IMG/VR virus record: IMGVR_UViG_3300024346_000003
Direction: 5' to 3' (one strand)
DNA: 64,000 bases
Origin: a virus
Lineage: Duplodnaviria; Caudoviricetes
Shown: one piece after another, positions 2,157-15,068 of the stretch
Layout of the letters: each line of letters starts with the position of its first letter
Position numbering within the stretch: position 1 is the first letter of the stretch
Translations under genes and position numbers: made by a program
Notes under the pieces: model-generated
What the model was told of the DNA's origin: nothing
Database searches by the model: none
What the model saw: the letters and a program-made list of their open reading frames with translations, nothing else

Positions 2157-4946
2157 TTAAAATAATTCAAGTGATGACCTTTTCCAACCATCACTACCTT
2201 TAATATATAAATAGTTATCATCTCTAGTTATGTCACCAATTTTACCATAATTATCCAAACTTGAACTTGGACTATATTCAGGAATTATTAAACTTAGTGG
2301 TGATATTGAATTATTTGTAACCCAACTACCCTCTGAATTTAATTTGAATTCAGCATTAATACCAGAACTAACACCATTTATTAATGATATACCACCACCT
2401 ATTGCTGTTGCAGTTGTACCATTGTAATTTAATTCAATATTATTATCTTCAGCCGCAATAGTTTGTGATTCTAAAATTAAACCATCAGGTGCTGTCATCT
2501 CTTTTATTGCTTCAACAATCCATGGGATTATTTCACTATAATTAAGATTTAACATACCATCACTTTTAGCTCTATTTCTAACTAATTCAGGTACAATTTC
2601 CTGAACCTCTTGTGCTATGAAACCAAATCTAATACCAGAACCCATATTCGATTCTTCAGTATATTCAAAAGAAACACCTCTTAAATTTTTAATAACATCT
2701 AAAGCTGTTGGTAATGTGTTAATATTTCTTTTTAATCTAATATCTGAAACACCAGCAACAATTCTACCACTTGCATCAGTAGCTATTGGGTCAGTAGATG
2801 TTAAACCGTCTATTACTAAATCTGGAACATAAACTGTGTCAGCTGTCGAACCAGTTATATTCTGACCACCAATAACAGCACTACGAGCACCAGTAACTCT
2901 TGAATTAGTTGAATGTATAAATGATGTATCACTAATAGCTATTGTTGAACTACCACCAGCGTGTGAATAGTTACCACTAGCTGTTGTTGAATTACCTTCT
3001 GCGTGAGATGAAATACCACCAGCTATCGTTGACTGACCTTCTGCGTGAGATGTTAAACCACTAGCTGTTGTATTACTACCCTCAGCATGAGAATAATTAC
3101 CAATGGTTGTGGTTAATCTACCTTCAGCATGTGATGACCAACCACTAGCGATAGATTGTTCACCTTCAGCATGTGAAGCAAAATTAGCATATGTATTATA
3201 CCCCCCAGCATGTGAATAATCACCACCCGCTACACTTAGATAACCTTCAGCGTGTGAACCAATACCACTAGCTATTGTGCCACCACCTTCAGCATGTGAA
3301 TAAGTACCACTAGCTGTTGATAAATAACCTTCAACATGTGAAGCAAACCCAATAGCGGTAGTTAAAAGACCTTCAGCATGTGAACTAATACCAGAAGCTG
3401 TACCACCACTAACAATAATAACACCATTAAAGTAACCACCCTCAGCATGCGAACCAGCACCAATTGATTGTGAATAATAACCCTCAGCATGTGAAGTATA
3501 ACCACTAGCTTTTGTACCTTCACCTTCAGCATGTGATATAAGACCACTAGCTATTGTATAACTACCTTCAGCATGTGATGCATCACCACTAGCTGTTGTA
3601 GCATAACCTTCAGCATGTGAATAACCACCAATAGCTCTTGTTAGACCACCCTCAGCATGTGAACCTATACCACTAGCAGTTGAAAATTGACCTTCTGCAT
3701 GTGAATATTGATTAGTTGTTGATGTTTGATAACCTTGAGCATGTGAATAGTTACCGCTAGCTATTGTTGCTCTACCTTCAGCGTGTGAATATAAACCACT
3801 AGCTGTTGTATTATACCCTTCAGCATGTGAATAATCACTTTCAGCAGTTGTTTGGAATCCTTCAGCATGTGAAGTTACACCACTAGCTATTGTACCCGAA
3901 CCTTCAGCATGTGAGTAATTACCACTTGCGGTTGTTTGATTACCCTCAGCGTGTGACGTAATACCACTAGCTACTGTAAACGAACCTTCAGCGTGAGACT
4001 TTAAACCACTAGCTGTTGTATTAGAACCCTCAGCGTGTGAACCTTGACTACTGGCTGTTGTACTCTCACCTTCTGAATGCGAATATTCACCCAATGCTTT
4101 TGTTAATGTACCCTCAGCGTGTGCGCTATCGTCACCAGCTACTGTAAACGAACCTTCAGCATGTGAACTATTACCACTAGCTATTGTACCAATACCTTCA
4201 GCATGTGAATACAACCCGATAGCCGTTGTACCATTACCTTCAGCCAAAGCATAGTCACCAGAAGCCAAATTACCAGCACTTTCAGTTACAATAGCAAAAT
4301 TACCAGTTGAAGCTGACCAAAATGTTGTACCAGATGTAACAGCAGATACTGATTGCCAAGTTGCCATACCTTCAGAATTTGAAGTTAAAACATATCCAAT
4401 TTGTGGGTTATCACTAACTATTAATTTTTTAGTTCTTAATATTTCAGTATTATCAACCCAAATAGTCCTACCTGTAAAATCTAAGGTTTCTGCACTATAA
4501 ATAAAAAAGTCTGTCGAAACAGTACCACTATAGTTGCCTGGGGTTGGTTCTGACATCGTTATTGGGTATAAATTAGAAGCACTAACACCAGAGTATGTTA
4601 AATTAACTAAATTACCATCTATTATGGTTGTAGAACTACTACCAAATATAGCTGATATGTTTTGAGATACACCACTATTACTTGGTGTTAATGCTGATAT
4701 AGATGAATCAACAGCTGAAACACCTGGGATACCCCATGTGAACACTGTTGTTGCACTATTACCCGAATACGAACTAATAACACCAAAATACTGTGATGTT
4801 TGTGCCGTGGCCGTTAAATCAGGTCCAGATGTTAATGCACTAAATGGCATACCAAAAACTGTAGTACCTGATAAAGTTGTTTCAGTTCTCTCTCTTTGTT
4901 TTATTTGTCGATTGTCAGAATAATCTAATTTTGTTCTAAAAGCCAT
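2157..4946 (-). CDS. Tail fibre/adhesin with YadA-head-like SHAEG repeats and peptidase S74 intramolecular chaperone
   Basis: About 30 14-aa SHAEGxxTxASGxx repeats, then VSDIRLKRNINTLPTALDVIKNLRGVSFEY...GFIAQEVQEIVPELV. Confidence 0.85.
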   Translation of the reverse strand: MAFRTKLDYSDNRQIKQRERTETTLSGTTVFGMPFSALTSGPDLTATAQTSQYFGVISSYSGNSATTVFTWGIPGVSAVDSSISALTPSNSGVSQNISAIFGSSSTTIIDGNLVNLTYSGVSASNLYPITMSEPTPGNYSGTVSTDFFIYSAETLDFTGRTIWVDNTEILRTKKLIVSDNPQIGYVLTSNSEGMATWQSVSAVTSGTTFWSASTGNFAIVTESAGNLASGDYALAEGNGTTAIGLYSHAEGIGTIASGNSSHAEGSFTVAGDDSAHAEGTLTKALGEYSHSEGESTTASSQGSHAEGSNTTASGLKSHAEGSFTVASGITSHAEGNQTTASGNYSHAEGSGTIASGVTSHAEGFQTTAESDYSHAEGYNTTASGLYSHAEGRATIASGNYSHAQGYQTSTTNQYSHAEGQFSTASGIGSHAEGGLTRAIGGYSHAEGYATTASGDASHAEGSYTIASGLISHAEGEGTKASGYTSHAEGYYSQSIGAGSHAEGGYFNGVIIVSGGTASGISSHAEGLLTTAIGFASHVEGYLSTASGTYSHAEGGGTIASGIGSHAEGYLSVAGGDYSHAGGYNTYANFASHAEGEQSIASGWSSHAEGRLTTTIGNYSHAEGSNTTASGLTSHAEGQSTIAGGISSHAEGNSTTASGNYSHAGGSSTIAISDTSFIHSTNSRVTGARSAVIGGQNITGSTADTVYVPDLVIDGLTSTDPIATDASGRIVAGVSDIRLKRNINTLPTALDVIKNLRGVSFEYTEESNMGSGIRFGFIAQEVQEIVPELVRNRAKSDGMLNLNYSEIIPWIVEAIKEMTAPDGLILESQTIAAEDNNIELNYNGTTATAIGGGISLINGVSSGINAEFKLNSEGSWVTNNSISPLSLIIPEYSPSSSLDNYGKIGDITRDDNYLYIKGSDGWKRSSLELF
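2960..4250 (-). repeat. 42-nt-period coding repeat array (ccttcagcatgtga core)
   Basis: Recurring ccttcagcatgtga/ccactagct blocks encoding SHAEG units. Confidence 0.9.
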
Positions 4947-7280: not shown

Positions 7281-7308
7281 AAAAAAGGGGAGGTAACTTC
7301 CCTTTTTT
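7281..7308 (+). terminator. Intrinsic terminator (bidirectional-type)
   Basis: aaaaaaGGGGAG-gtaa-CTTCCCtttttt. Confidence 0.8.
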
Positions 7309-7394
7309 CATTTACATTATGTACCATATGATATAATTGGTGTATAGTATTTAGATTTTTTCAATTATATAAATATTTATAATAAAAAAACTAT

Positions 7395-8291
7395 ATGGAT
7401 AAATTAATTGAAAATAAAATAATAGAACTTTATTTAAGCGGAATTGGGTCAACAACAATAGTTAAATTAACTAATATACCCAAACGTAAAATTTTAAATT
7501 TACTAAAAAATAAAAATATACTAAGAAATAGACATCATAGTAATGATTTTTATAATCAATTTTGGAATGAAGATGATATGTGGTGTGGTAATTGGGTTTG
7601 TGAAATGTGTAATGAAACAATTAAATTTTGTGTAAATAATAAAGTTTATTTAAATAGGAATTTAAATAAAAAGAAAATATGTAAAAGTTGTGCAAACAAA
7701 AATCAAATGGGTGAAAACAACTCATTTTATAGTAAAAAACATACTGAAAATAGTAAAAAATTAATATCGGAAAAAAAAATAGGTATTAAGACTAGTGACC
7801 ACATGAGCACCGATAAATATAGAAAAATAGTTAGTGATTTAGCCAAAGAAAGGTGGCAAAGTGGTAAAATGGAAAAAACTAGATTAAAATTAAGTCAAAT
7901 GATGAAAGACAAACACGCTAACGGTGAATTAAAATCAATAAATAGGTCAAAACCTGAATTTGAAATAATTGAATATTTAGAAAGTATTAATATAAAATGT
8001 GAACCAAGTTATAATGTGGAATCAAAAATATTTGACATATATATACCTAAATATAATTTATTAATAGAATATAATGGTGATTATTGGCATTGTAACCCTA
8101 AAAAATATGAGGCTGATTATTATAATAAGAAAAAAAATAAAACTGCTAAAGAAATATGGGAATATGATAAAAATAAACTTTACTTAGCAAAAAAATATGA
8201 TTATAATTGTATTGTAATTTGGGAAACAGATTACAAAAAAAATAAAAATATAATAAAAGAAATTTTTAATAATTATGAACAAATTAAATAA
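7395..8291 (+). CDS. Free-standing homing-type endonuclease (NUMOD3-like repeat, C-terminal Vsr/DUF559-like nuclease)
   Basis: GENNSFYSKKHTENSKKLISEK (NUMOD3-like); FDIYIPKYNLLIEYNGDYWH...IVIWETD; CxxC pairs. Confidence 0.8.
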   Translation: MDKLIENKIIELYLSGIGSTTIVKLTNIPKRKILNLLKNKNILRNRHHSNDFYNQFWNEDDMWCGNWVCEMCNETIKFCVNNKVYLNRNLNKKKICKSCANKNQMGENNSFYSKKHTENSKKLISEKKIGIKTSDHMSTDKYRKIVSDLAKERWQSGKMEKTRLKLSQMMKDKHANGELKSINRSKPEFEIIEYLESINIKCEPSYNVESKIFDIYIPKYNLLIEYNGDYWHCNPKKYEADYYNKKKNKTAKEIWEYDKNKLYLAKKYDYNCIVIWETDYKKNKNIIKEIFNNYEQIK

Positions 8292-9574
8292 TATGACCCC
8301 AGACAGTCGAAAAAAAACTAAGGTATTAGTAGTACCTAGCGACAGGTCTGGGGTCGGCTGAAGGTTATTTCAGAAGTGTTGCCCCACATGTTGGGTTAGA
8401 AAGATTCTACCCAGAAGAATTCCATGTTGATATTAATGAAACCCCAGATTTAAATAATGATGAATTTTTAAAACAATATGATATTGTACATTATCATAGA
8501 AATTTAGGTCAATATGAACAAATGCCTAGTTTATTAGAAAAATTAAAATCAATGGGTATTGTAACGATTATGGATTTAGATGACTATTGGGCACCAGGTC
8601 AACACCACCCAGCGTATTTGATTATTAAAAATTCTAAAATGTCTGAAAAAATTCTAGCAAATATTAAAATTGCTGAAAACATTACAACAACTACAGATGT
8701 TTTTGCAAGTGAAATTGGGAAATATAATAAAAAAGTTTTTGTATTGCCAAACGCAATTGACCCAACTGAAAAACAATACACACCAAATCCAGAAAAATCT
8801 GATAGAATTAGAATTGGGTGGTTAGGTGGTAGCTCACACTTAGAAGATTTAAAACTTTTAAGTGGGTTAGTTAATAAACTTAAATCAGATGGTTTGATGG
8901 ATAAAATACAATTTGTATTATGTGGTTTTGATTTAAGAGGTAATGTCACAATGATTGACCCTAAAACTGGTGAACAAACGCAAAGACCAATTAAGCCTAT
9001 GGAAAGTGTATGGTATGAATATGAAAAAATCTTTACGGATAACTATTCAAGCGTTAGTGAAGGTTATAAAAAACATTTATTATCATTCACAAAAGATGAA
9101 TATCATGATATAGCTAATGAACCATACAGAAGAGTCTGGACTAAACCAGTTAGCACATATGCTACTAATTATAACCTATTTGATATTTCATTAGCACCAT
9201 TGGCTGATAATCTTTTTAACAAAGTTAAATCACAATTAAAAGTGATTGAATCTGCTTTCCATAAAAAAGCATTGATTGCTCAAGACTTTGGACCATATCA
9301 AATTGATTTGGTTAACGCTAGAGTTAAATCTTTAGATAAAAATAACCCAGTAACATTTGATGGGACGGGTAACGCTTATTTAGTTAATAATAATGCTAAA
9401 GAATGGCATCAGTTTGTTAAAAGATTAATAAATAATCCAGAACAAATTGAAATACTATCAAATAATTTATATAATACTATAAAAGATAAATATTCTATTG
9501 AAGCTGTTTCTAAACAACGTAGAGAATTATATTTATCACTATTAAAAGAAAAGCAAAATGGTAATATTCAGTGA
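8275..9574 (+). CDS. GT-B (GT4-like) glycosyltransferase split by a 7-nt gap at 8359-8365; recoded gene or pseudogene
   Basis: ATG 8275/8293 gives KTKVLVVPSDRSGVG then TGA 8359; the +1 frame from 8363 gives GYFRSVAPHVGLERFYPEEF..., continuous into ORF 8522-9574 (MDLDDYW, RIGWLGGSSH, DISLAPL, KSQLKVIE). Confidence 0.75.
8294..8373 (+). promoter_or_regulatory. GC-rich RNA hairpins flanking the coding gap
   Basis: GACCCCAGAC 8295-8304 is the exact reverse complement of GTCTGGGGTC 8346-8355; inner GTCG/CGAC and AGGTA/TACCT pairs; second stem CTGAA 8358-8362 / TTCAG 8369-8373. Confidence 0.65.
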
Positions 9575-9683
9575 GTTCTACAACCTGATTCAGTGTGCAT
9601 ATGATGAAGAAGGAATTATCGGATTTTGTTATTTCGATAAGATAATGATAACCAGATATGGTTTTGAAATATTAAAAAAATAA
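9558..9683 (+). CDS. 41-aa small ORF (below ORF-track cutoff)
   Basis: MVIFSEFYNLIQCAYDEEGIIGFCYFDKIMITRYGFEILKK*; overlaps GT stop and ends 4 nt before next ATG. Confidence 0.5.
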   Translation: MVIFSEFYNLIQCAYDEEGIIGFCYFDKIMITRYGFEILKK

Positions 9684-10941: not shown

Positions 10942-11514
10942 ATGGACAATAGAGTAAACGAATTATCAGACAAGTTATTTAAAGCTATTGACCCAAATAA
11001 CCCATACTCCTATGATGAATTCATTCACGAATATGGTAATGGGTATCAAGAATCAAATGACTCACCAACTTTTCTAATAAATTTAAATTTTGTTAATAAC
11101 TCTGAAAATGCAGACCCAGAATATGCAACCGAAGGTTCATCTGGGTTTGATTTAAGAGCATCAGCTTCTGTAAAAATTTTACCTGGTTGTTATGAAACAG
11201 TACCAACTGGTTTATTTTTTGAAATACCACCTAATTTTGAAATTCAAGTCAGACCAAGAAGTGGTTTAGCTGCAAAGAATGGTGTAACAGTTTTAAATAC
11301 ACCAGGAACTATTGATTCAGATTATAGAGGTGAAATCAAAGTGATATTAATTAATCATGGTAAAAAAGTATTCCAAATAGAAATGGGTGATAGAATTGCA
11401 CAAGGTGTAATCGCACAAACATCAACATCATATATCAAGTTAAACAAAGTTTCAAAAATATCTGACGATACAGAAAGAAGTTCAGGTGGTTTTGGTAGTA
11501 CAGGTATTAAATAA
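10942..11514 (+). CDS. dut: dUTP diphosphatase
   Basis: [51 protein letters not shown]; start moved from 10897 to ATG 10942 after upstream stop. Confidence 0.95.
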
Positions 11515-11529
11515 AAAAATAAAATAATT

Positions 11530-12591
11530 ATGAGTCAATTTATTGGGGATAAAGACATTAAAGTAGATTTTAATGATATATTAATTACACCAGCAATTAT
11601 AACTGATATTAGTAGTAGAAGTGAAATAAACCCATTCCATTCGAATGGGCTTTTACCACTATTTACAGCACCAATGGATACTGTAGTTGATGAAAGTAAT
11701 GCCGACTTGTTTATGAGTCACAAACTAAATATTTGCTTACCTAGAGGTGAAAATCGAACACAACATAGTATGTTCCAAGCATACTCACTTAAACAATTTA
11801 CAGAAAAGTTTATACTTGATGATTTAGCTGACGTTCTTATTGAACCAATTTATGTTTTAATAGATACAGCAAATGGTCATATTCTCGAATTAGTTGAAAC
11901 GACTAGAATAGCAAAAGAGAGATACGGAAATATGATGATACTAATGGTTGGTAATATTGCAAATCCAGATACATACAAAGTATTATCTAATGCTGGTGCT
12001 GACTATATTCGAGTTGGTATTGGAAATGGAAACGGGTGCTTAACCACACAACAGTTAGGTATCGGATACCCAATGGCTTCATTAGTTAGAGAATGTTATT
12101 ATGCTTCATTATCACTAGAAAAACCAGCTAAAATTGTTGCAGATGGTGGTATGAAAGATTATTCAGACATTATCAAAGCATTGGCTTTAGGTGCTAACTA
12201 TGTAATGCTTGGTAGTATCTTAAACAAGTGTGCTGAGTCATGCGGACAAAGCTTTTTGAAGGATAATGGTCGCCCAGTACCCATTAGTAATTTAGAAGCG
12301 GTAAATCACTTTAAAAGAGGTGATTTAGGTGAAGCTACCATTATTAAAGAATTTCGTGGTATGTCAACCAAAGAAGTACAAAGAAAATGGGGTAATGAAA
12401 CATTAAAAACATCTGAAGGTGTTGTTAGACATAGACCAGTTGAATACACTCTTGAACAATGGGTTGATAATTTCGAATCTTATTTACGTTCAGCAATGAG
12501 TTATGTTGGCGCAAGAACACTTGAGGAGTTTGTAGCAAATTCAGAATTTATAAATATAACAAATAATTCATATAATCGATTTAAAAAATGA
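11530..12591 (+). CDS. guaC: GMP reductase (IMPDH/GMPR family)
   Basis: TAPMDTV, MVGNIA, RVGIGNGNGCLT, IVADGG, ALGANYVMLG, FRGMS, TSEG; no CBS domain and no IMPDH flap RY dyad visible. Confidence 0.75.
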   Translation: MSQFIGDKDIKVDFNDILITPAIITDISSRSEINPFHSNGLLPLFTAPMDTVVDESNADLFMSHKLNICLPRGENRTQHSMFQAYSLKQFTEKFILDDLADVLIEPIYVLIDTANGHILELVETTRIAKERYGNMMILMVGNIANPDTYKVLSNAGADYIRVGIGNGNGCLTTQQLGIGYPMASLVRECYYASLSLEKPAKIVADGGMKDYSDIIKALALGANYVMLGSILNKCAESCGQSFLKDNGRPVPISNLEAVNHFKRGDLGEATIIKEFRGMSTKEVQRKWGNETLKTSEGVVRHRPVEYTLEQWVDNFESYLRSAMSYVGARTLEEFVANSEFINITNNSYNRFKK

Positions 12592-13703
12592 TAAGTATAG
12601 TATATTGTACCAGAGAAGGTAATAAAAAACACTACGAACACCTAACAAAAGTTGCTGGTAACCCAAAAGTTGAGGTAATTGAGTATATAAATAATGGTGA
12701 AAGTTTAACTAAGTTTTATAATAAAGCTTTAAAAGAAACTAAAAATGATATAGTCGTGTTTGTACATGATGATGTTATTATTGAGACTAAACAATTGGTC
12801 AATAAAATTAATAGAATATTTGACAAAAATCCTGAGTATGGTATTGTTGGTATTGCTGGTACGAAATATTTATCAGAATCTGGCAGATGGTGGGATAACC
12901 CAAAAAATATGTATGGTAGAGTAGCACATACTCACGAAGGTAAAACTTGGTTGTCAGAATATAGTGCAGACCAAGACAGAAGACTAGAGGAAACAATTAT
13001 TGTTGACGGAGTATTTTTTGCGGTTCATAAAGGTAGAATTAAAAAACAATTTGATGAATCAGTTGAAGGTTTCCATTTCTACGATGTTGATTTTTGTTTT
13101 CAGAATCATTTAGAAGGTATTAAGATTGGTGTTACAACTGAGATTAGAGTGAATCATATGTCTATCGGAATGACAAATGAAAAATGGGAAGCTAATAGGG
13201 TTATATTTTCTGAAAAATATAAAGATAATTTACCAGTTAGAATTGATGAAACTTTTGAAAATAGAAAAATGAAAATCATGATTACATCAACTAATGAGGG
13301 TGATGACTTAATCAATAAAGCTAAATTAATTAAATCATTAATTGATTTAAATTGTGATGTAACATTAGTTGCCAATCTAGAACCAAAAGATTTTATTATT
13401 GCAAAACAAAGTGGTGCTAAATTAGCCTCATTATCTGAACCACCTGGATTCAGGTCTGGTGATGGTCAGTTCTCAATAAATACTGAGAATGGTCCAATGT
13501 TATCTGAGGTTGGTAAAATGTATAAATTGGGTATGGTACCATACGATATAATATATGTTGATAATGAACAAATCTTTAAAGCATATGGTAAAATGTATGA
13601 CGAATGTAAAATTGTTGACATAGAATCTAAAGAATATTATTTGTGTGATAAAACACCAGAAGGGTATAAAGAATTTTTTGTTAAAATGTTTAATCATGAA
13701 TAA
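12588..13703 (+). CDS. GT-A (GT2-like) glycosyltransferase
   Basis: LTKFYNKAL..DIVVFVHDDV..GIVGIAG..VDGVFFAV..FHFYDVDFC. Confidence 0.85.
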   Translation: MISIVYCTREGNKKHYEHLTKVAGNPKVEVIEYINNGESLTKFYNKALKETKNDIVVFVHDDVIIETKQLVNKINRIFDKNPEYGIVGIAGTKYLSESGRWWDNPKNMYGRVAHTHEGKTWLSEYSADQDRRLEETIIVDGVFFAVHKGRIKKQFDESVEGFHFYDVDFCFQNHLEGIKIGVTTEIRVNHMSIGMTNEKWEANRVIFSEKYKDNLPVRIDETFENRKMKIMITSTNEGDDLINKAKLIKSLIDLNCDVTLVANLEPKDFIIAKQSGAKLASLSEPPGFRSGDGQFSINTENGPMLSEVGKMYKLGMVPYDIIYVDNEQIFKAYGKMYDECKIVDIESKEYYLCDKTPEGYKEFFVKMFNHE

Positions 13704-14337
13704 CCCATTAATTAATATTTTAACTAGAACATCTAATAGACCTAATGCTTTTTATTTAAATAAAAGCACAGTTAGAAGTCAGAGTTATAAAAATATAAGA
13801 CATATAGTTTCAGTAGATGATGAGTTTACTGAAGCTTATGTTAAAACCTATTCGGATGTAGATTATATTACTATCAATAAAAATAGTATAATTAACGATG
13901 ATAATTCAATCAACCCTAATACTGGAAAATACTCACCACATAATCTATATTTTAACCCATTAATGCGTGAGGTAAAAGAGGGTTGGATTATGATTCTTGA
14001 TGATGATGATAGATTTTCAAACGGAAACTCATTAGAAACTATTGTAAACTCAATTAAAGATGAGGATACTATGGTAATCTGGCAGATGAGATTTCCAAAT
14101 GGTATGGCACTACCACCAACAAATTTAATTAATGAACCACCAAAATTAGGAACAATCGGTTCTCCATGCATATTATTTCACTCAAAGTATCTTGGTGATA
14201 CTAAATGGGATGGGTGGAAATGTGGTGATTTTAGGTTTATTAATTCCATTTATAATAAAGTACCGAATAAAGTAACTATTCCAGAAATGTTAGTTACTAT
14301 CGGTCAAATCGGTGACGGAAATAGAAGTGATTTATGA
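13696..14337 (+). CDS. GT2 glycosyltransferase
   Basis: INILTRTSNRP..HIVSVDD..WIMILDDDD..CGDFRF; start likely ATG 13696. Confidence 0.8.
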   Translation: MNNPLINILTRTSNRPNAFYLNKSTVRSQSYKNIRHIVSVDDEFTEAYVKTYSDVDYITINKNSIINDDNSINPNTGKYSPHNLYFNPLMREVKEGWIMILDDDDRFSNGNSLETIVNSIKDEDTMVIWQMRFPNGMALPPTNLINEPPKLGTIGSPCILFHSKYLGDTKWDGWKCGDFRFINSIYNKVPNKVTIPEMLVTIGQIGDGNRSDL

Positions 14338-15068
14338 TATCAGTTATTTTAAATGTTTATAAAAGACCATATAGTCTTGAAGAACAGATTAGGTCCATAT
14401 TAAATCAATCAATAAAAATTGAACCAGAAAATATACATGTTTGGTATAATACACCAGAAGATAAAACTATAATTCAAAATTTACCAAGTGATTTAAAAAT
14501 AAAAACATACCAATGTAACCATAATACTAAATTTTTTGGTAGATTTACATTACCATTATTATGTAAAACAAAATACGTTGCAATGTTTGATGATGACATA
14601 ATCTGCGGTAAAGATTGGTTCAAAAACTGTTTAGAAACTATAGAAAAAGAAGATGCTATTTTAGGTGGTAGTGGTGTACTTTTACACGGTAATCAATATC
14701 AACCGAATAGTAAAGTTGGTTGGAATGGTGTAAAAAGTTCTGAATCAATAGAAGTAGATTTAGTAGGGCACGCCTGGTTCTTTAAACAAGAATATGCAAA
14801 ATTTATGTGGTTGGAACAACCACCATCATGGGATAATGGTGAAGATATGTTTTTCTCATATGTTGCACAAAAGTACAATATAAAAACTATTGTACCACCA
14901 CATCCAGAAAATAATCAAGAACTATGGTCAAATGTACCAGGTCGTGATAGAAATATGGGAAATGATGCGGCAGCTTCTTGGATACATAATAAAGACCACA
15001 TGACACTTAGAAATAGTATTGCAACTACATTAATAAATAAAGGTTGGAAAATTGTAAAAATTAAGTAA
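14334..15068 (+). CDS. GT2 glycosyltransferase, paralogue A
   Basis: ISVILNVYKRP..YVAMFDDDI..NGEDMFFS. Confidence 0.85.
   Translation: MISVILNVYKRPYSLEEQIRSILNQSIKIEPENIHVWYNTPEDKTIIQNLPSDLKIKTYQCNHNTKFFGRFTLPLLCKTKYVAMFDDDIICGKDWFKNCLETIEKEDAILGGSGVLLHGNQYQPNSKVGWNGVKSSESIEVDLVGHAWFFKQEYAKFMWLEQPPSWDNGEDMFFSYVAQKYNIKTIVPPHPENNQELWSNVPGRDRNMGNDAAASWIHNKDHMTLRNSIATTLINKGWKIVKIK

Follow-up and report, generated by a model that had tools for sequence, protein, structure and literature searches.

A glycosyltransferase gene in a 64,000-nucleotide stretch of viral DNA (Duplodnaviria; Caudoviricetes; IMG/VR record IMGVR_UViG_3300024346_000003), referred to here as the window, lies directly behind a homing-type endonuclease gene and is interrupted near its 5′ end by a coding gap of 7 nucleotides (nt) that begins with a stop codon. 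Comparison of this locus with its relatives makes it likely that the gap is crossed by a programmed translational bypass (stop-hop) from GGC to GGT, encoded on a homing-endonuclease cassette and probably driven by refolding of an RNA hairpin. The initial annotation had proposed a miniature hop between matched glycine codons over an adjacent stop, tied to a homing-type endonuclease, and the comparative data support this proposal. A single hop event explains every gap length and restores the spacing of gapless homologues, and is therefore the preferred reading. The take-off codon, the stop that follows it and the landing codon, which are conserved across variable gap lengths, likewise favour a hop.

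The interrupted glycosyltransferase gene

The window has a GC content of 29.6%, a high coding density and a phage-like layout. Open reading frames (ORFs) called under translation table 11 tile it without breaks. No other broken gene was seen in it, and no tRNA genes were found within it. Read from ATG 8293 (or ATG 8275), the 5′ frame of the glycosyltransferase gene runs ...KVLVVPSDRSGVG and ends with GGC 8356-58 and TGA 8359-61, followed by A 8362, GGT 8363-65 and TAT 8366. The frame after the gap is open from position 8333; from GGT 8363 it reads G-YFRSVAPH... and continues through TGA 9572-74, with its first in-frame ATG at 8522. Deleting the 7 nt yields a protein of 424 (start 8293) or 430 amino acids (start 8275). 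ATG 8275 is the more likely start, and a TATGA start overlapping the 3′ end of the endonuclease gene is kept throughout the cassette family. The GGC-TGA-A-GGT junction, both stems and the product of about 424-430 amino acids given in the initial annotation all held on re-reading. The locus is composed as follows:

8275..8358, + strand: first piece of the glycosyltransferase reading frame, 28 codons, MNKLNNMTPDSRKKTKVLVVPSDRSGVG; 22 codons when read from ATG 8293; overlaps the end of the endonuclease gene by 17 nt
8295..8355, + strand: 5′ hairpin of 61 nt, about 23 base pairs (bp) in three helices, with a perfect basal helix of 10 bp (GACCCCAGAC/GTCTGGGGTC); ends 1 nt before the take-off codon
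8356..8358, + strand: putative take-off codon GGC (Gly)
8358..8373, + strand: small stem-loop CUGAAG/UUUCAG with the stop codon in its 5′ arm, 6 bp, -4.8 kcal/mol, possibly a take-off stem-loop
8359..8365, + strand: the 7 nt that would not be translated as separate codons, made up of TGA 8359-61, spacer A 8362 and landing codon GGT 8363-65
8366..9574, + strand: second piece of the reading frame, encoding a GT-B/GT4-like glycosyltransferase; resume codon TAT, 402 codons plus stop

Ahead of the gap, 10 of the 22 codons from ATG 8293 end in G or C, and the 72 nt upstream of it have a GC content of 44%, compared to 30% in gapless alleles.

The 7 nt at 8359..8365 are missing from the closest endonuclease-free relative and from every gapless homologue. 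This closest relative, protein P0003 (98% identical, full-length, beginning MNKKVKVLVVPSDRSGVGYFRSVAPH), contains a contiguous SGVGYFRS, and the excess in the window amounts to exactly 7 nt. Contig L004, which carries P0003, has no endonuclease gene; its glycosyltransferase gene is uninterrupted and its codons are AT-rich. A protein search over 5.8 billion proteins returned thousands of glycosyltransferase homologues, of which 120 were listed. Among these 120, the gapless full-length homologues read ...SD..GV[GS][YKF][FY]RS, with no insertion between GV[GS] and [YKF][FY]RS. The continuity of SGVGYFRS in endonuclease-free relatives, which the initial annotation had listed as a check, was thereby confirmed.

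That the 7 nt are a sequencing or assembly artefact has a negligible probability, and nothing beyond its prior probability speaks for it. Logan contigs from four DNA runs (two marine from 2017, a metagenome from 2020 and a lake sample from 2024) span 8150-8600 without an insertion or deletion (indel); two of these contigs are near-identical to the window and possibly come from its source sample. The junction recurs base for base in independent contigs from ENA (L003) and JGI (L005 and L006), and in the latter two the downstream glycosyltransferase sequence is only 83% and 80% identical to that of the window. The 7 nt are also retained in short contigs from two RNA-seq libraries, X20 and X25. 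The junction is identical in separate assemblies (ENA, JGI and Logan) of marine and lake material dated 2017-2024, and the contigs of all 6 runs are free of indels across it; the 7 nt are therefore not an assembly error.

Two further explanations at the level of decoding were rejected. An alternative genetic code with TGA read as Trp or Gly would continue into a frame that is unlike the homologues, the table 11 ORFs tile the window, and the gaps of relatives use TAA and TAG. Slippage at the run of eight A residues at 8310-8317 fails as well, as a product with one A fewer runs into TAG.

To place the gap within the protein, we turned to the gapless homologue. An AlphaFold2 model of P0003 (predicted local distance difference test score 86, predicted template modelling score 0.86) has two Rossmann-like domains in a GT-B arrangement, with a beta1-loop-alpha1 unit at the N-terminus. 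Foldseek searches with this model returned GlgM, MshA, PglA, BshA and PimA with E values from 1e-13 to 1e-9. The glycosyltransferase matches PHROG 7162, annotated as glycosyltransferase, and a Pfam search gave no match. As modelled, the enzyme is a GT-B glycosyltransferase closest to the GT4-type retaining transferases, and the gap is predicted to fall between G18 and Y19, where the beta1 loop leads to the start of helix alpha1.

Both pieces of the reading frame carry the mark of coding constraint. In the contigs from the DNA runs, all 11 single-nucleotide polymorphisms within 8395-8566 fall on the third base of a post-gap codon, 10 of them upstream of the first internal ATG at 8522. Codon differences in the first piece are synonymous to non-synonymous in a ratio of 14237:7792 across the family. 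For the first 30 codons after the landing site the ratio is 20479:27862, against 4570:47565 in a shifted-frame control. This constraint on both pieces gives indirect support to a single colinear protein read from two frames. It also bears on a split protein, in which a 28-residue peptide and a separately initiated C-terminal protein would assemble, as with genes split by mobE or mobA. Phage enzymes that reassemble from split parts are known (Aeh1 NrdA and T4 gp39/gp60), but neither the window nor the gap types inspected offer an ATG, GTG, TTG or ribosome-binding site between the stop and ATG 8522. According to the model, a start at 8522 would remove strands beta1-beta3 of the N-terminal Rossmann domain, and the polymorphisms upstream of 8522 are all at synonymous positions. 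We consider a split protein very unlikely.

Gap alleles and the hairpin at the putative take-off codon

The catalogue of alleles combines endonuclease-anchored and glycosyltransferase-anchored loci from viral and metagenome contigs and holds 206 loci with 140 unique N-terminal regions. A gap at exactly this codon is present in 73 unique alleles; the other 67 are gapless. The gap-bearing alleles fall into 32 gap types, whose lengths of 5-44 nt cover all three frame offsets (5 nt, 2 types; 6 nt, 10; 7 nt, 4; 8 nt, 9; 9 nt, 4; 10 nt, 1; 13 nt, 1; 44 nt, 1). Downstream of the gap no premature stop was seen in the 73 unique alleles, and the ORF stays open for about 377-433 codons wherever the contig allows; copies of the gene that contain an intein are open for 769-777 codons.

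Take-off, stop and landing are kept throughout this variation. The take-off codon is GGY or AGY in 32/32 gap types and is followed by TGA in 23 types, TAA in 6, TAG in 2 and GCG in 1 (the 44-nt variant), so that a stop follows in 31/32. A stop in the A site at take-off, as in programmed bypassing, is thus found in the window as well (TGA 8359-61). The landing codon repeats the take-off codon in 11/32 types; in 13/32 it is a Y/Y synonym decoded by the same tRNA, and the GGC and GGT of the window belong to these as a matched take-off and landing pair. The remaining 8/32 pair at 2 of 3 positions: four differ at position 3 only, and four are GGC after AGY, for which a U-G wobble is possible at position 1. 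Wherever serine codons serve for take-off and landing, they are AGY. Gapless alleles at the same position use GGA or GGG in 17/38 Gly codons and TCN in 18/25 Ser codons, which gap-bearing alleles never do.

The 44-nt variant (L242:1815-1956) takes off from GGT, continues with GCG and has its landing GGT before KFRSVDP. Its gap forms an 11-bp stem capped by a GNRA-type GUGA loop, followed by an AU-rich tract, and is closer to T4 gene 60 than the short gaps are; the contig stops 7 codons past the landing site. Four gapless alleles (L105, L108 and L138 without endonuclease, L170 with an intact one) appear healed, in that they keep the cassette-type N-terminal extension and have no gap, which in sequence terms suggests that the gap was lost precisely.

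The range of gap lengths bears on a reading in which a +1 (or -2) frameshift at GGC-UGA in the window is combined with stop readthrough in relatives with in-frame gaps, adding 1-3 extra residues. A paused stop in the A site is the classic +1 context of the prfB type, and gaps of 6 and 9 nt are in frame. However, gaps of 5, 6, 7, 8, 9, 10 and 13 nt would call for three unrelated mechanisms with shared signals, and tRNA-Gly(GCC) cannot re-pair on GCU at +1. The products would gain an insertion in a loop of constant spacing in all gapless homologues listed. The presence of all three stops in the gaps argues against a single reassignment, and TGA, TAG and TAA end ordinary genes of the window. This combination is distinctly unlikely. 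The +1 shift that the initial annotation had offered beside the hop is consequently not retained, since it cannot serve gaps of 5, 6, 8 and 9 nt and would add two residues to a motif of constant spacing in the gapless relatives examined.

Folding of 8275-8390, which contains both RNA structures, gave -36.8 kcal/mol (z = -4.6), and 0/200 shuffled sequences fold as well. For comparison among alleles, stretches of 72 nt were folded, with the take-off codon, or its counterpart in gapless alleles, as their endpoint. Minimum free energies by class of unique allele were:

Gap, endonuclease ORF of at least 230 amino acids (n = 65): -38.3 to -22.8 kcal/mol
Gap, endonuclease partial or lost (n = 8): -32.2 to -29.7 kcal/mol
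No gap, endonuclease ORF of at least 230 amino acids (n = 12): -11.7 to -3.7 kcal/mol
No gap, endonuclease partial or absent (n = 51): -21.2 to -2.2 kcal/mol
No gap, unclassed because the contig ends (n = 4): -7.6 to -5.9 kcal/mol

In the first 90 unique alleles the energies of gap-bearing and gapless sequences separate completely (Mann-Whitney U = 0, p = 7e-14). The hairpin is found in 73/73 gap-bearing unique alleles and is weak or absent in 67/67 gapless ones. It goes with the gap rather than with the endonuclease, because it is strong in the 8 gap alleles without an endonuclease and weak in the 12 gapless alleles that have one. The four healed alleles show decaying stems of -21 to -10 kcal/mol. 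The hairpin is equally constant in position: in 73/73 gap-bearing alleles its last pair falls no earlier than 1 nt before the take-off codon and no later than the second base of that codon.

The pairing is supported by covariation. RNAalifold on a plain MAFFT alignment gave a poor consensus, as two hairpin subtypes pair in shifted registers, and an explicit structure was used instead. Likewise, a covariance model (R1) also scores conserved coding sequence and did not cleanly separate the gapless alleles, for which reason the energy of each sequence was used. With the explicit structure, 87.6% of cells are paired over 14 sequences, and double changes occur in 9/23 pairs. The covariation score of 0.251 compares to 0.130 for shuffles, of which 0/500 reach it, and to at most 0.097 for slid partners. 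In a model-guided alignment of 60 distinct sequences, which is fitted to the model and hence biased towards the structure, the basal helix is 90.9% paired with compensatory changes in 7/14 pairs, and one basal pair is seen as AU, UA, GC, UG and CG. Some compensations alter conserved amino acids (KLLVVAS in L007 versus KVLVVPS in others). The stem covariation that the initial annotation had named as a check is therefore present, and the hairpin tracks the gap. A candidate stimulatory mRNA structure thus stands at the take-off site, with a geometry unlike that of the gene 60 take-off stem-loop. The small 3′ stem is comparable in many gap types and absent in several (0 to -1.9 kcal/mol), with a mean of -4.5 versus -2.4 in gapless alleles; by analogy it may act like the gene 60 take-off stem-loop, though it is not conserved.

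A hop driven by this hairpin could proceed as follows. Ribosomes would start at ATG 8275 (or 8293), unwind the hairpin and pause with peptidyl-tRNA-Gly(GCC) on GGC 8356-58 and UGA in the A site. At this point the ribosome would still enclose the 3′ arm of the basal helix, and the upper helices and 5′ arm would have left it. Re-zipping of about 10 GC-rich basal pairs behind the ribosome would then pull the mRNA forward by about the observed distances, whereupon the tRNA would release GGC and re-pair with GGU 7 nt downstream. Decoding would restart at UAU 8366 and give a colinear enzyme of 430 amino acids with the wild-type SGVGYFRS, and ribosomes that terminate at the stop would release a peptide of 28 residues. 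Across the family, peptidyl-tRNA Gly-GCC or Ser-GCU would leave the take-off codon and re-pair 5-13 (or 44) nt downstream.

Several points weigh against the hop. It is deduced from the comparison of sequences. All material comes from uncultured phages, with no cultured phage closely related, and the contigs of the RNA libraries X20 and X25 may be DNA carry-over. In eight gap types the landing codon is less than fully cognate (GGA, AGA, or GGC after AGY). The gap types lack phylogenetic independence, which makes the codon-match statistics look more significant than they are, and common descent of the two codons from one residue could account for part of the match between take-off and landing. 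A basic extension at the N-terminus, which is conserved (e.g., P-x-x-R-K-K or G-R-x-x-I-R), lies 14-20 residues before take-off, and its codons form the 5′ arm of the hairpin, which makes constraints on the nascent peptide and on the RNA inseparable. Finally, the Shine-Dalgarno-like element before the landing site of gene 60 and the conserved take-off stem-loop in its gap are not general here.

The endonuclease cassette and its genomic setting

The gap is part of a larger replaced segment. The elements concerned are:

7320..8378 (approximate), + strand: mobile cassette with its own promoter region, the endonuclease gene, the recoded glycosyltransferase 5′ end, the hairpin, the gap and the landing region
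7395..8291, + strand: homing-type endonuclease gene, 298 amino acids, with a NUMOD3 DNA-binding motif and a VSR/REase-like PD-(D/E)XK C-terminal domain
L009:335-420, L012:2408-2500, L015:2448-2550 and L018:2398-2500: remnants of the native glycosyltransferase 5′ end, from the start codon through GV[GS]Y

The endonuclease ORF matches Pfam NUMOD3 (E = 1.3e-4), weakly the MTES_1575 REase family, and PHROG 559 and 3339 (homing/HNH endonuclease). Homology between the window and the endonuclease-free contig L004 stops after ...catttacatta (7319) and restarts around GGT TAT TT. Relative to L004, the segment from just past the upstream terminator (7319) to about the landing codon is thus replaced by the endonuclease gene, then a copy of the first glycosyltransferase codons that is extended at the N-terminus and recoded with GC-ending synonyms, and the gap. 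Contig L005 is identical to the window through 8378 and diverged beyond.

As is typical of a homing cassette, the endonuclease ORF is present or absent at one site in syntenic relatives, with converted flanks. It is absent in L004 and present in the window, L005 and L006, and only 3′ remnants are left in L128 and in L003, where the 5′ two-thirds of the gene are lost. The displaced native 5′ end of the glycosyltransferase gene (e.g., MKNEKVKILVVPSDRTGVGY, then stops) survives upstream of the endonuclease gene in L009, L012, L015 and L018. In the L015 remnant the serine is encoded by TCA, and the cassette copies of that serine are AGT and AGC; therefore the take-off codon, the gap and the landing region move with the cassette. 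The endonuclease ATG lies about 47-49 nt beyond the native remnants in these four contigs, and the endonuclease may therefore use the old promoter and translation start region of the glycosyltransferase gene.

Relatives of the endonuclease (31-73% identical) from IMG/VR and JGI metagenomes are located directly upstream of the same glycosyltransferase. The gap occurs together with the endonuclease cassette among relatives, an association that the initial annotation had singled out for checking. By analogy with mobA and gene 60, the gap may protect the endonuclease's own allele from cutting, a purpose that the initial annotation had put forward together with a possible regulation of the glycosyltransferase. 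In L170 an intact endonuclease occurs without a gap, so coexistence with the endonuclease does not strictly depend on the gap. At this site, removal of the endonuclease insert as a group I intron or intein was rejected, because an upstream exon is missing from the window and the recoded 5′ copy still encodes protein. Compared with GenBank phages by megablast, 7300-9600 gave no match, and protein searches found no cultured phage with a close relative of the glycosyltransferase or the endonuclease.

The cassette could alternatively have left behind a dead gene. A selfish endonuclease cassette would have broken a dispensable glycosyltransferase, and the intact downstream frame would reflect repeated recent invasions. 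In its favour, invasion of diverged backgrounds by homing cassettes does occur, glycosyltransferase genes only 80-83% identical to that of the window bear the same junction, and the hop is deduced from comparison rather than from an observed full-length protein. Against this, cassettes that are deeply diverged, with endonucleases 36-73% identical, all keep an in-frame, protein-conserved piece of 22-29 codons that ends at the same codon, and 0/73 unique gap alleles have a decayed downstream frame. Eight alleles without the endonuclease retain the gap, the hairpin and an intact glycosyltransferase, and inteins are maintained in some of the same genes. Moreover, the hairpin covaries, and its decay is confined to alleles that have lost the gap (L105, L108, L138 and L170). 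On this evidence a dead gene is unlikely, and the programmed hop is retained.

The inteins are observed in L007 (glycosyltransferase gene at L007:3477-5783), L009, L012, L015 and L018 as an in-frame insert of about 365 residues between WLGGS and SHL. The insert starts with Cys and ends with GN|S, and its LAGLIDADG_3 domain (E = 2.6e-10) identifies it as an intein. Two kinds of selfish element thus target the glycosyltransferase gene, each at a different conserved motif. In L003, a minus-strand GIY-YIG/NUMOD3 endonuclease gene (L003:4549-5250) lies between dUTPase and IMPDH-like genes, at a position corresponding to about 11515-11530 of the window, where the window has none; it is therefore a second presence/absence homing element in the same neighbourhood.

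The cluster around the glycosyltransferase gene contains a tail-fibre gene, a dUTPase gene (10942-11514), an IMPDH/GMP-reductase-like gene (11530-12591) and, following the latter at 12588-15068, three consecutive family-2 glycosyltransferase genes. The GT-B gene, the three family-2 genes and their neighbours form a glycosylation cluster. On the minus strand, 2157-4946 encodes a protein of 929 amino acids that contains a YadA-head repeat and, at its C-terminus, a Peptidase_S74 domain of the endosialidase chaperone type; it is probably a tail fibre or spike whose chaperone is self-cleaving.

In public databases, gene calls shorten the gap-bearing glycosyltransferase to 346-407 amino acids, from internal ATG, TTG or GTG starts (proteins P0021, P0024-25, P0037-45, P0048, P0054-58 and P0070); truncation to 346-381 amino acids and splitting of these genes by gene callers were noted as well. 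Metagenome protein sets therefore mis-annotate the putative bypass alleles in a systematic way, which matters for annotation.

Comparison with known bypassing systems

Programmed bypassing has so far rested largely on one phage cassette family, together with a Streptomyces phage case and the byp elements of yeast mitochondria. The glycosyltransferase family comprises about 70 natural variants with gaps of 5-44 nt in every frame, one covarying hairpin at take-off and two take-off tRNA species. This allelic series makes it testable what drives the ribosome forward without decoding, including refolding of the exiting mRNA. If the hop is confirmed, more than 30 natural gap variants would be at hand around one fixed hairpin and take-off geometry, and, if candidate hops in other phage genes hold as well, short stop-hops would be a general means by which phage homing elements settle in conserved motifs and leave the gene functional. 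Recoding linked to homing endonucleases would thereby reach another family of nucleases and another target gene. Full-text literature searches returned gene 60/mobA, phiHau3, the yeast byps and synthetic stop-hops, and nothing on this family of glycosyltransferase and endonuclease. By a narrow balance of judgement, we favour the view that the cassettes form a second, independently evolved family of endonuclease-borne bypass cassettes, acting mainly through a "spring-loaded" 5′ hairpin that drags the mRNA over 5-13 (up to 44) nt.

Free-standing phage homing endonucleases such as those of mobE/nrdA and the seg genes resemble the cassette in lying beside or inside a conserved gene, in their presence/absence polymorphism and in their recoded flanks. 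Unlike here, they leave the target intact or split it into two proteins, and no hop is needed.

Non-programmed hops of +5, +6 and 9 nt over stop or hungry codons have been described in E. coli (Weiss et al. 1987, O'Connor 1989 and Kane 1992, cited in bioRxiv 10.1101/2022.08.31.505936). In the account given there, the peptidyl-tRNA leaves a codon beside a slow A-site codon and re-pairs a few nt downstream in any frame, as would be the case here. As far as that account goes, these hops are of low efficiency, occur in synthetic or overexpression settings and have no dedicated stimulator, whereas the cassette is natural, appears selected and carries a stimulatory-looking hairpin.

In the terminase gene of Streptomyces phage phiHau3, bypassing takes place at rare UUA codons, with the junction peptide identified by mass spectrometry (RNA Biol 2023, PMC10732093). 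Both cases concern a phage gene in pieces, joined by bypassing in phiHau3 and putatively so here, with a slow A-site codon at take-off. PhiHau3 differs in using a hungry codon instead of a stop, in having no endonuclease cassette, and in its gene and structures. The mitochondrial byp elements of Magnusiomyces capitatus are numerous mobile gaps in coding sequence whose take-off and landing codons match (Lang et al. 2014, cited in PMC10732093). Going by that citing description, they differ from the cassette in their length of 27-55 nt, their location in a eukaryotic organelle, their lack of an endonuclease gene and their occurrence at many sites rather than one.

The closest parallel is T4 gene 60, in which a translational bypass of 50 nt is associated with the mobA homing-endonuclease cassette (Huang 1988; Bonocora 2011; Manning & Atkins, bioRxiv 10.1101/2022.08.31.505936), a bypass cassette that "remains unique" according to Manning & Atkins 2022 (bioRxiv 10.1101/2022.08.31.505936). 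The differences are substantial. There is no sequence homology, the target is a GT-B glycosyltransferase rather than a topoisomerase, and the endonuclease is of the NUMOD3 and VSR-like type, unlike the HNH enzyme MobA. The endonuclease gene does not divide the glycosyltransferase into two polypeptides, the gap measures 5-13 nt (44 nt in one type) instead of 50 nt, and take-off is from GGY or AGY instead of GGA. In the gene 60 family, conservation extends to the take-off stem-loop within the gap but not to the 5′ stem-loop; here the dominant conserved signal is the 61-nt 5′ hairpin abutting the take-off codon. The cassette is thus an analogue of T4 mobA/gene 60 and no homologous member of that family.

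Nonetheless, the shared features are extensive. In both systems a mobile endonuclease cassette with a recoded flank and a coding gap sits in a conserved phage enzyme gene, and a Gly take-off codon is directly followed by a stop, with a matching landing codon and RNA structure 5′ of take-off. Pairing of the mRNA on exit from the ribosome has been proposed as a driver of forward bypass (bioRxiv 10.1101/2024.12.09.627546), and the re-zipping of the hairpin envisaged here would match the role proposed there for such pairing and for the gene 60 5′ stem-loop. As with gene 60 and mobA, the endonuclease has been lost in some lineages and the gap persists.

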